64,000 nucleotides of DNA from an uncultured Roseburia sp. (GTDB lineage Bacteria > Bacillota > Clostridia > Lachnospirales > Lachnospiraceae), in the NCBI GenBank assembly GCA_964613325.1, contig CAZTGP010000004.1, positions 23,768 through 87,767 of the forward strand, read 5' to 3'. This document shows positions 16,871 through 54,166 of this stretch, piece by piece. How positions within the stretch are numbered: position 1 is the first letter of the stretch; the number at the start of each line of letters is the position of its first letter. The notes under the pieces are model-generated. The model did not search any database, was not told where the DNA came from, and worked only from the letters and a program-made list of their open reading frames with translations. Both the position numbers and the translations under genes were made by a program.

Positions 16871-17896
16871 ATGGAGAAAAAGGATCTTGACTGGGCCAAC
16901 CTAGGATTTGGCTACATGGTTACAGATTATCGTTATGTATCAAACTATAAGGATGGCAAGTGGGACGATGGAGAGATTACCACAGATGCCAACATTACAT
17001 TAAATGAATGTGCAGGTGTATTCCAGTATTCCCAGTCATGCTTTGAAGGATTAAAGGCATATACAACAGAGGACGGACATATCGTATGTTTTCGCCCTGA
17101 TTTAAATGCACAGAGAATGAAAGATTCGGCAGAGAGACTTGAGATGCCAGTATTCCCAGAAGACCGTTTCGTAGATGCAGTAGAGCAGGTTGTGAAAGCA
17201 AATGCAGCATGGGTACCTCCTTTCGGATCAGGAGCTTCCCTATACATTCGCCCATATATGATTGCTACCAACGCAGTAATCGGTGTAAAACCAGCGGATG
17301 AATATCAGTTCCGTATTTTGGTTACACCTGTAGGACCATACTTTAAGGGTGGTGCAAAGCCATTAACTATCAAGGTGTCTGATTTTGACCGTGCCGCACC
17401 AAACGGCACTGGACATATTAAAGCTGGATTGAACTATGCGATGAGCTTACATGCAATCGTAACTGCTCATAAAGAAGGCTATGATGAGAATATGTACTTA
17501 GATCCAGCAACCAGAACAAAGGTTGAGGAGACAGGTGGAGCTAACTTCATTTTCATTACAAAAGATGGCAAGCTGGTTACTCCTAAGTCAGATAGTATTC
17601 TTCCTTCTATCACACGCCGTTCTATTATGACTGTGGCAGAGAAATATCTTGGACTGACTGTTGAACACAGAGAAGTATACTTTGATGAGCTGAAAGACTT
17701 CGCAGAATGTGGTCTTTGTGGAACAGCTGCAGTTATTTCACCAGTTGGTAAGATTGTAGATCATGGCAAAGAGCTTGTATTCCCAGCAGGAATGGAAGAG
17801 ATGGGACCAATCACAAAGAAAATCTATGATACATTAACAGGAATCCAGAAGGCTGAGATCGAAGGACCAGAAGGCTGGGTTAAAGTAATTATGTAA
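16871..17896 (+). CDS. ilvE: Branched-chain amino acid aminotransferase
   Basis: QSCFEGLKAY, LYIRP, KAGLNYA, EETGGAN, ILPSITR and CGTAAVISPV motifs. Confidence 0.95.
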   Translation: MEKKDLDWANLGFGYMVTDYRYVSNYKDGKWDDGEITTDANITLNECAGVFQYSQSCFEGLKAYTTEDGHIVCFRPDLNAQRMKDSAERLEMPVFPEDRFVDAVEQVVKANAAWVPPFGSGASLYIRPYMIATNAVIGVKPADEYQFRILVTPVGPYFKGGAKPLTIKVSDFDRAAPNGTGHIKAGLNYAMSLHAIVTAHKEGYDENMYLDPATRTKVEETGGANFIFITKDGKLVTPKSDSILPSITRRSIMTVAEKYLGLTVEHREVYFDELKDFAECGLCGTAAVISPVGKIVDHGKELVFPAGMEEMGPITKKIYDTLTGIQKAEIEGPEGWVKVIM

Positions 17897-17926
17897 TTCA
17901 TTTTCTGTTAAAACAGAATAGCATAT

Positions 17927-18132
17927 AGTTAATTGTGAAACGCTTTAAGTTTCTAATGACTATGTACTGCGGAATACAAGGAAACATAGGCACGCTTTCG
18001 CTACGTTGGCTCATGCAACGGTACTAAGCGACCAAAGTACGGTCGCTAAGGACCGGCTTCGCCAGAGTACCTATGTTTCCTTGTATTCGTAGTATATAGT
18101 CAATTAAGGGATTATGAGTTTCACAATTAACT
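17927..18132. repeat. Structured interspersed repeat, full copy 1 (MITE/REP-like or ncRNA)
   Basis: 15-bp terminal IR agttaattgtgaaac/gtttcacaattaact; ~35-bp inner IR; core hairpins. The 93-nt core differs at 4 positions from the copy at 36492-36584. Confidence 0.85.
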
Positions 18133-18148
18133 AGAATAGCGTATAGTA

Positions 18149-18203
18149 AAAGGTGCATGAATTCAGCTGCGGGAAACGGTAGTTGGTCTCATGCACTTTT
18201 TTT
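18149..18203 (+). terminator. Intrinsic terminator downstream of ilvE and the repeat
   Basis: aaaggtgcatga/tcatgcactttt inverted repeat plus T7 tract. Confidence 0.7.
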
Positions 18204-36297: not shown

Positions 36298-36432
36298 ATG
36301 AGAAACCTCCACAATTAATTACCTATATTGTACCATGACAAACGGTTGCAGCGCAATATATTACCTGTTTTGCTCATTTTTGTTAAGGCATTTCTATGGG
36401 AGGCGTGTATAATAACTATTAGAAACAAGTTT

Positions 36433-36637
36433 AGTTAATTGCAAAACACATTGAATTCACAATGACTATGTACTACAAATACAAACAAACCTAGGCACGC
36501 TTGCGCTACATTGGCTCATGCAACGGTACTAAGCGACCAAAGTACGGTCGCAAAGGACCGGCTTCGCCAGAGTGCCTATGTTTCTTTGCATTTGTAGTAC
36601 ATAGCCAATCGAAGGATTGTGAGTTTTGCAATTAACG
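36433..36637. repeat. Structured interspersed repeat, full copy 2
   Basis: 14-bp terminal IR gttaattgcaaaac/gttttgcaattaac; near-identical core to 17987-18079. Confidence 0.85.
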
Positions 36638-36672
36638 AAGAGATTTCAGATGTGAATTATGGAGGTAGAAGC

Positions 36673-37962: not shown

Positions 37963-38096
37963 ACATAGCTAATTGAAGGATTATGAGTTATAAAATTAGC
38001 TATGTAATGAACAAATAGGGAGGGATATGTCACCAAATTGGAAGGATATATCCTTTCTTTGTATTCGTAGTACATAGTCAATTGAAGGATTGTAGT
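37963..38096. repeat. Two right-arm fragments of the structured repeat
   Basis: acatagctaattgaaggattatgagttataaaattagctatgt (37963-38005, perfect 12-bp IR) and ttgtattcgtagtacatagtcaattgaaggattgt (~38059-38093) match the 3' arm of copy 1. Confidence 0.7.
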
Positions 38097-53900: not shown

Positions 53901-54166
53901 TTTGTGAGGTATTTGAAAAAACTTACTATTACATCACATTTTATTGCAAAAATGGCTAAAATTCCATCTTAGGAAGCGTTTTTTTCACTTTGGTGTGATG
54001 TATACGAAATAATTCATTCTCCACATCACCGAATTCTTTGATTTCTGTGATGTGGTTTCCCTGTTTTTTCATATACCTCACAGATTAGTTGACATAATGG
54101 AAAATAAAGCATTAAATTTCCAGAAAATGTGATGTAAATAGTTGCTTTTTTCAAATACATCACAAA
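53901..54166. repeat. ORF-less element of four GTGA(T/G)GT(A/G)-N18/19-(T/C)AC(A/C)TCAC dyads with ~39-bp terminal inverted repeats
   Basis: Dyads at 53904-37, 53995-54029, 54047-81 and 54129-63. Unit 4 is the reverse complement of unit 1; unit 3 resembles the reverse complement of unit 2. Confidence 0.85.

Follow-up and report, generated by a model that had tools for sequence, protein, structure and literature searches.

The element described here is a real mobile insertion, 205-208 bp long and without an ORF inside, of which the window (the whole 64-kb stretch of DNA analysed) holds two copies. It is probably a hairpin-forming, non-autonomous transposon of the MITE type, confined to Lachnospiraceae and moved in trans, whose core is selected as a folded single strand. 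The family is undescribed and works like the hairpin MITEs Correia, ERIC, RUP and bcr1; its distinguishing features are a branched core that covaries across the whole bacterial family, conserved unpaired bases and a target duplication of about one helical turn. The interior of ordinary MITEs decays neutrally, and an interior that is conserved and covarying family-wide is unexpected for such an element.

Copies in the window and in the source genome

Copy 1 is a 208-bp near-palindrome with tips TAG...CTA at positions 17926-18133, where the first-pass annotation had flagged a multi-stem element; its termini were set by comparing the occupied and unoccupied alleles of a sister copy. As that annotation also stated, it lies between the stop codon (17896) of ilvE, a branched-chain aminotransferase ORF (16871-17896, + strand; Pfam Aminotran_4), and the intrinsic terminator of this gene, a hairpin followed by a U-run (18148-18203, + strand; -28.5 kcal/mol, z = -6.8). 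The insertion begins 29 nt past the stop codon and, since the terminator comes after it, is part of the ilvE 3' UTR. The element has three layers, namely 16-nt terminal inverted repeats, arms of ~42 nt and a 93-nt branched core. In copy 1 these are the left terminal repeat TAGTTAATTGTGAAAC (17926-17941; TAG tip, three variable bases and a conserved 10-mer), the left arm (17942-17983), which is variable in sequence and pairs with the right arm, the conserved folded core (17984-18076), which scores 111.5 bits with the covariance model R1 described below, the right arm (18077-18117) and the right terminal repeat GTTTCACAATTAACTA (18118-18133). The core comprises a long-stem junction, a bulged mini-hairpin, a helix with an A.A mismatch (CGGUACUAAG/CUAAGGACCG) and a variable apical hairpin. 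The predicted fold of copy 1 reaches -100.6 kcal/mol on the + strand (z = -12.8 versus shuffles) and -92.8 kcal/mol on the - strand.

The 12-bp direct repeat reported around copy 1 is present (agaatagcatat at 17915-26 and agaatagcgtat at 18133-44). Its left copy (agaatagcata, 17915-17925) is identical at 10/11 positions to 18133-18143, and the right copy may be placed at 18134-18144 or at 18133-18143, the register being ambiguous by 1 nt through an A in common. The proposal that this repeat is a target-site duplication agrees with the 10-13-bp duplications around other copies.

Copy 2 (207 bp, 36432-36638; core 36489-36581) sits between a divergent araC-like gene and galK and aligns with copy 1 end to end; no recognisable target duplication was found in its flanks. 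The two 93-nt cores differ by exactly 4 substitutions, and the compensatory arm changes that had been read from copy 1 to copy 2 are likewise there, ATTGTGAAAC/GTTTCACAAT becoming ATTGCAAAAC/GTTTTGCAAT. An isolated right-arm fragment of the family (38054-38093 in the window, C4:61821-61860 in the assembly; 90% identity to element positions 149-188) lies downstream, so that galK, with copy 2 before it, is bracketed by family members.

The window's own assembly (G000, a 3.36 Mb draft of 213 contigs) holds many more than these two: blastn gives 29 full-length copies at 85-95% identity and ~28 partial ones, and the covariance model finds 34 core matches. All copies in this genome are intergenic and dispersed over many contigs, and in nearly every full copy 186 bp separate the starts of the two conserved 11-mers, AATTGCGAAAC and GTTTCGCAATT. 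Many contigs of G000, as well as contigs of other samples, stop inside a copy. Derivatives with internal deletions that keep both termini occur as well (C15, C40, C16_34758, C9, C12 and C3).

One full copy (C64:12785-12989; positions 1501-1705 of locus L005) is found within the nadA-nadB-nadC operon, 18 nt past the nadB stop codon and 17 nt ahead of nadC. It is present, or the contig is broken at that point, in all other samples read, and the persistence of this insertion means that a hairpin of ~200 nt is tolerated between co-transcribed genes.

An empty site and target duplications

Alleles of other strains were found through exact-protein look-ups of the genes flanking each insertion. The region upstream of lepA is empty in SRR27710308, from another strain of the species, where GATTAGGATAAA runs directly into GAATG, that is, GGGTGATTAGGATAAA is followed at once by GAATGTGAGG. 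In G000 and three other samples the same region is filled by an 84-bp derivative, TAGTTAATTGCG...CGCAATCATCTA, and a second ATTAGGATAAA, the filled allele reading ATTAGGATAAA, TAGTTAATTGCGAAAG...GTTTCGCAATCATCTA, ATTAGGATAAA and GAATG in succession. The insert has TAG...CTA tips and an exact 11-bp duplication. This single empty site could also have arisen by precise deletion between the 11-bp repeats.

Duplications of 10-13 bp, most commonly 11, surround 11 of the 34 copies in G000, and flanks agree at 9 or more of 11 positions in 8/34 copies versus 0.3% of mismatched flank pairs. Identities are 13/13 at C80_8994 and C151, 11/11 at C15, C40, C16_34758 and C45_13574, 11/12 at C80_1047, and 10/11 at C6 as at copy 1. 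Comparable duplications are seen in other genera (L022, 11/11; L026 and L038, 10/11; L025, 9/11). The targets are A/T-rich, intergenic and near gene ends and starts. The first-pass annotation had offered a mobile element (MITE/REP-like) as one reading, which is borne out by the empty and filled lepA alleles and further backed by the recurrence of these duplications and by a patchy copy number of 0-34 in the genus.

No further empty site was seen at the ilvE, sensor kinase/response regulator, argJ, cupin and nadB-nadC loci in any readable sample; as all of these samples are filled there, the five insertions are old or fixed.

A conserved and covarying core

A structure of the core was derived by hand; on 18 sequences 91.5% of its cells are paired and 17 of its 32 pairs have changed on both sides; none of 500 shuffles reached this, and sliding the pairing gives 31-42%. 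Covariance model R1 was built from this structure. Its 36 matches from ~30 genera, in an alignment that was fitted to the model, have 91.9% of cells paired, double changes in 27/32 pairs and a covariation score of 0.61, against 0.185 for shuffled and 0.07-0.11 for slid pairings. Covariation, which had been suspected from two copies, is strong on both the 18 and the 36 sequences.

The three small core hairpins proposed in the first-pass annotation fare differently under this comparison. The agcgacc/ggtcgct pairing is supported by covariation, and the cgttg/caacg and ggc-ttc-gcc hairpins find no support; in the covarying fold TTGGC pairs with GCCAG, GC pairs with GC, and there is a bulged 2-bp mini-hairpin, GC-UUUC-GC. 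The conserved features of the core are the long stem, an 11-nt bulge CACGCU(Y)NCGC with the 2-bp mini-hairpin inside it, a covarying three-base pairing UAC/GUR, a variable P3 helix (longer, and covarying, in the Lachnospiraceae MAG locus L011), a GC/GC pairing with an AR bulge, the helix CGGUAC(A)UAAG / CUAAG(U/G)ACCG with its invariant A.A mismatch, and an apical hairpin with the loop AAANNAC.

Nucleotide diversity (pi) within G000 follows the layers of the element: it is 0.043 in the core, 0.06-0.08 in the 10-nt inner part of the terminal repeats, 0.12-0.15 in the paired arms, 0.24-0.34 in the subterminal 15 nt and 0.38-0.40 in the outer six bases, within which the TAG/CTA tips are mostly retained. 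Per site, the arms carry ~5 times as many singleton (private) changes as the core. The core fold appears, from these sequence comparisons, to be under selection. Because the helix sequences are free while the pairing, the A.A mismatch, the bulges and the tetraloop pattern are kept, the core is probably not a double-stranded binding site; and because a covarying branched fold of 93 nt has been kept together with its unpaired bases over family-scale divergence, something reads it.

Strand, orientation and the form of the folded core

On the strand called + the loop of the mini-hairpin is UYNC, and on the opposite strand it is GNRA in 35/36 sequences. The GNRA strand folds better by 5.5 kcal/mol on average, in 27/34 elements, a difference that comes from the core. 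Arm mismatches on the + strand are 68 of the G.T type versus 40 of the A.C type (p = 0.009). The strand cues conflict, the GNRA loop and the stability favouring one strand and the arm mismatches the other. In the ilvE mRNA, copy 1 would be present with the UYNC loop. The loop pattern alone is no proof of RNA, since d(GCGAAAGC) is an unusually stable mini-hairpin in DNA as well.

Orientation with respect to host genes has no bias (9 same versus 11 opposite in G000, 29 versus 33 elsewhere), and an 8:1 bias in tight gaps of G000 is not reproduced in 62 other co-directional contexts. Insertion orientation also has no intrinsic link to the A/T polarity of the target, the skew merely following the host sense strand, and no conserved internal promoter or terminator is seen in the element. 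Taken together, the orientation, polarity and promoter results speak against any function relying on read-through from host genes and, weakly, against insertion aimed at the lagging strand as single-stranded DNA.

These observations bear on the possibility that the copies are genes for structured non-coding RNAs (protein-binding, regulatory or catalytic), RNA being the selected product and transposition only spreading the gene. We consider it improbable. Strong covariation, conserved unpaired nucleotides, the GNRA-type tetraloop on the more stable strand, a core conserved far beyond the arms over ~30 genera and the rarity of private substitutions in it would all suit such genes. Against this, transcription from the host would produce the wrong strand of half of the copies, as orientation has no bias, the wobble-type mismatches of the arms favour the non-GNRA strand, the arms differ completely between genera, an internal conserved promoter or terminator is absent, and core-less deletion derivatives persist with perfect duplications. 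Rfam offers no relative either. The Rfam comparison suggested at the outset, run on the window with Rfam 15 at the gathering score, gives no matches (Clostridiales-1, skipping-rope, Y RNA-like and ribozyme families included), and at E <= 10 the element itself has chance-level matches only (STnc40 on the terminator, and ceN54).

Element ends and the search for a mobilizing enzyme

The terminal inverted repeat consists of TAG, three variable bases and ATTGCGAAAC. Its two versions, TAGTTAATTGCGAAAC / GTTTCGCAATTAACTA, are retained by 27 copies and also outside the genus, the element end pair being TAGNNNATTGCGAAAC...GTTTCGCAATNNNCTA. Loci L025 and L037 belong to other genera and have unrelated arms, yet TAGGTAATTGCGAAAC and TAGATGATTGCGAAAC are preserved in them; arms in general are unalignable between genera, with their pairing kept. 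The congener G016 has a divergent subfamily in which the termini and the core blocks are kept, the arm sequences are wholly different yet paired, and the apical hairpin varies in length. This genome also has dispersed 'termini-only' hairpins of 22-69 bp. In the mini-hairpins at C6:140438-140470, C8:28072-28110 and C4:27152-27231 (L015-L017), AATTGCGAAAC is joined to GTTTCGCAATT by a short loop; they may be footprints, deletion products or minimal units mobile on their own.

The ends are bipartite, with both the tips and an inner 10-mer conserved, and the duplication spans about one helical turn; both features suggest that a DDE transposase acts in trans. A slightly variable duplication of 10-13 bp is typical of the IS4 and IS231 groups (ISfinder), and among DDE transposases those of these two groups would be the most similar. 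The transposase, which would be encoded elsewhere or lost from many genomes, would bind the conserved 10-mer of the repeats, cut at the TAG tips and cut its target about one helical turn apart. The core would act as a cis-acting module selected as a folded single strand, possibly as an extruded hairpin, as single-stranded DNA during transposition, or as RNA. At ilvE the element would merely be carried along within the 3' UTR, ahead of the terminator.

Four of five features expected of a MITE are found, namely a short (under ~600 bp) non-coding body, terminal inverted repeats, a target duplication and dispersed copies. The fifth, an autonomous IS with the same ends, was not found: in the drafts of G000 and G016 and in ~0.8 Mb of related loci no ORF is bracketed by these termini. 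Terminus pairs 0.7-4 kb apart proved to be solo arms, mini-hairpins or, at L014, separate copies on either side of a germination-protein gene. On inspection of their sequences, the genes that lie between copies look like ordinary metabolic genes. G000 contains no multi-copy transposase ORFs. As a candidate partner DDE_Tnp_1 (PF01609) was rejected, as it does not co-occur with the element (13/23 carriers versus 12/17 non-carriers) and is absent from ten high-copy genomes. The only DDE_Tnp_1 gene of G000 (C71:1-2300) encodes an IS4-like transposase of 564-593 aa and is followed by a small ORF. The IS4-like class of ~590 aa is seen in 8/23 carriers versus 0/17 non-carriers; it is not an obvious mobilizer, its relatives in other genera having unrelated ends, TTTGACAGTTGAATAA. 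PDDEXK_2 (Rpn-like) proteins, in 21/23 carriers versus 10/17 non-carriers, give a weak association that is confounded by mobile-element load.

The high-GC subfamilies seem to be without the GCGAAAC termini, and for this reason the termini may be less fundamental than the core. A bolder proposal, which we hold to be unlikely, is that the folded core rather than the terminal repeats is the primary recognition module of an undescribed, structure-specific mobilization system. On this view a single-stranded intermediate would be recognized by its A.A-mismatch helix, its bulges and its GNRA-type mini-hairpin, either by a protein peculiar to Lachnospiraceae or by the core acting itself as a catalytic or guide-like nucleic acid, and the cut would be placed at the foot of a stem of measured length. 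If true, this would be a bacterial mobile element defined by structure and not by end sequence.

Distribution in Lachnospiraceae

Model R1 matches 128 of 401 Lachnospiraceae genomes (one per genus), mostly with several copies each, and none of ~340 genomes from other families of Clostridia; the element is confined to Lachnospiraceae. The exact core pattern occurs in at least 120 metagenome contigs, including those from human gut and rodent cecum, and in 1 of 2.9 million viral contigs, and plasmid and phage collections gave no blastn match. Within the genus, 9 of the 31 genomes surveyed have 1-34 copies and 22 have none. Insertion sites are unrelated between genomes, and no neighbouring gene recurs beyond housekeeping families at the 29 + 80 loci compared. 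The patchiness and the unrelated sites are both consistent with a mobile element that spreads in bursts and is lost again.

The same data weigh on the idea of a host-domesticated structural DNA or mRNA element, like REP, ERIC or SPRITE, that stabilizes or punctuates transcripts or binds a nucleoid protein and is selected at each site. Copies are all intergenic, often 10-60 nt from gene ends or starts, and lie inside operons (nadB-element-nadC); the ilvE, HK/RR, argJ and nadB insertions are fixed in the samples examined, and core diversity is low in situ. This reading is nevertheless quite unlikely in our view, given that 22 of 31 congeners do without copies, that sites are unrelated between genomes, that one insertion is polymorphic and no orientation rule exists, and that a generic hairpin function leaves the conserved bulges and the mismatch unexplained. 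It is very improbable that the element is a SINE-like retroelement, a rod-shaped RNA that would be reverse-transcribed and integrated at staggered nicks, with the 'inverted repeats' being only the base of the rod: variable duplications (10-13 bp) at A-rich targets, a conserved core with termini that differ between subfamilies and the failure to find a DDE partner would suit it, but the TAG...CTA tips are precise, the 10-mers are conserved at both ends, a 3' tail and a 5' truncation pattern are absent (truncations being internal deletions with both ends kept), and orientation is uncoupled from target polarity beyond the host gene strand.

Comparison with known repeat families

A trans-mobilized hairpin MITE finds its closest parallels in Correia/NEMIS (Neisseria), ERIC/IRU (enterobacteria) and RUP (Streptococcus pneumoniae), which are also gene-less, 100-200 bp long, multi-copy and intergenic, and share with the element terminal inverted repeats, long hairpins, co-transcription with neighbours and the breaking of draft assemblies. 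Those families duplicate TA or a few bases and are limited to a genus or a few species, whereas the present element duplicates 10-13 bp and occurs in about one third of Lachnospiraceae genera; we know of no covarying branched fold in their interiors that spans a whole bacterial family. Likewise bcr1 of the Bacillus cereus group is a Firmicutes repeat of ~150-200 nt, interspersed, with a stable predicted fold and transcribed with its neighbours. It differs in its fixed short target TTTAT and narrow host range, and has no sequence or Rfam relation to the element.

IS231 with its MIC231 cassettes and the IS4 group resemble the element in a long, slightly variable duplication of about one helical turn (10-12 bp for IS231 and 11-13 bp for the IS4 group in ISfinder), and their non-autonomous derivatives are mobilized in trans, as proposed here. 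The termini TAGTTAATTGCGAAAC are unlike the IS231 or IS4 ends known to us. Of the properties that a derivative of these groups should have, the 10-13-bp duplication is present, while co-occurrence with DDE_Tnp_1 and common ends are not.

REP/REPIN sequences (RAYT, Y1) are, like the element, short, palindromic, intergenic, high-copy repeats without a gene of their own, and both are probably moved by a protein encoded elsewhere. REPINs have no target duplication, measure 2 x 20-40 nt and are associated with a RAYT gene flanked by repeats, in contrast to the 10-13-bp duplication and ~205 bp of the element; a REP/REPIN-RAYT identity is ruled out by the duplication, and no flanked RAYT gene was seen among the bracketed genes. 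Derivation from IS200/IS605 was rejected as well, for the element has inverted repeats and a duplication and shows no orientation bias, gene direction serving in this test as a proxy for replication direction. Nor are the copies integron attC sites: the R''/R' consensus (RYYYAAC / GTTRRRY) does not match their termini, they are scattered instead of standing in cassette arrays, and they have a target duplication. In the literature on the terminus and on MITEs of Lachnospiraceae and Clostridia, no description of the element was found.

In the guts of humans and animals the Lachnospiraceae count among the commonest bacteria. Roughly one in three of their genera has the element, at up to dozens of copies, and it occupies operons and UTRs such as the ilvE 3' UTR, the galK leader and the nadB-nadC gap and repeatedly breaks metagenome assemblies. 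Finding what reads the fold would uncover either a novel cis requirement for a DDE transposase or a novel system that binds RNA or single-stranded DNA, and would also explain the one-helical-turn target cuts in these genomes. Model R1 is in addition a practical marker with which to annotate and scaffold Lachnospiraceae MAGs.

Clusters, rearranged copies and other repeats

Copies often lie 0.2-1 kb from another copy, frequently inverted (L027, L047, G363:C28:22444-23146, G221:C3:120758-121060 and G016:C23:14450-14890), which suggests hot spots of insertion or preferential landing beside copies already present. At L034 (G423:C159) the left arm and the first 25 nt of the core are partially duplicated in tandem (ATATGTTATGTATAAGACACGCTCTCGCTCCACTTCGG, twice) ~90 nt upstream of the core; this is a local rearrangement inside an element. 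Tandem repeats of ~37 bp (GTATTTCAATATATTGCAATCTCTAATTTTTGCACTG) without spacers stand beside a solo left end at C10:54290-54420 of G000 and are not CRISPR-like. The window also holds an unrelated short interspersed repeat at 54001-54165 (C4:77768-77932), and several other unrelated families of short interspersed repeats are likewise found at the ends of contigs C13, C10, C63, C161, C130 and C12.
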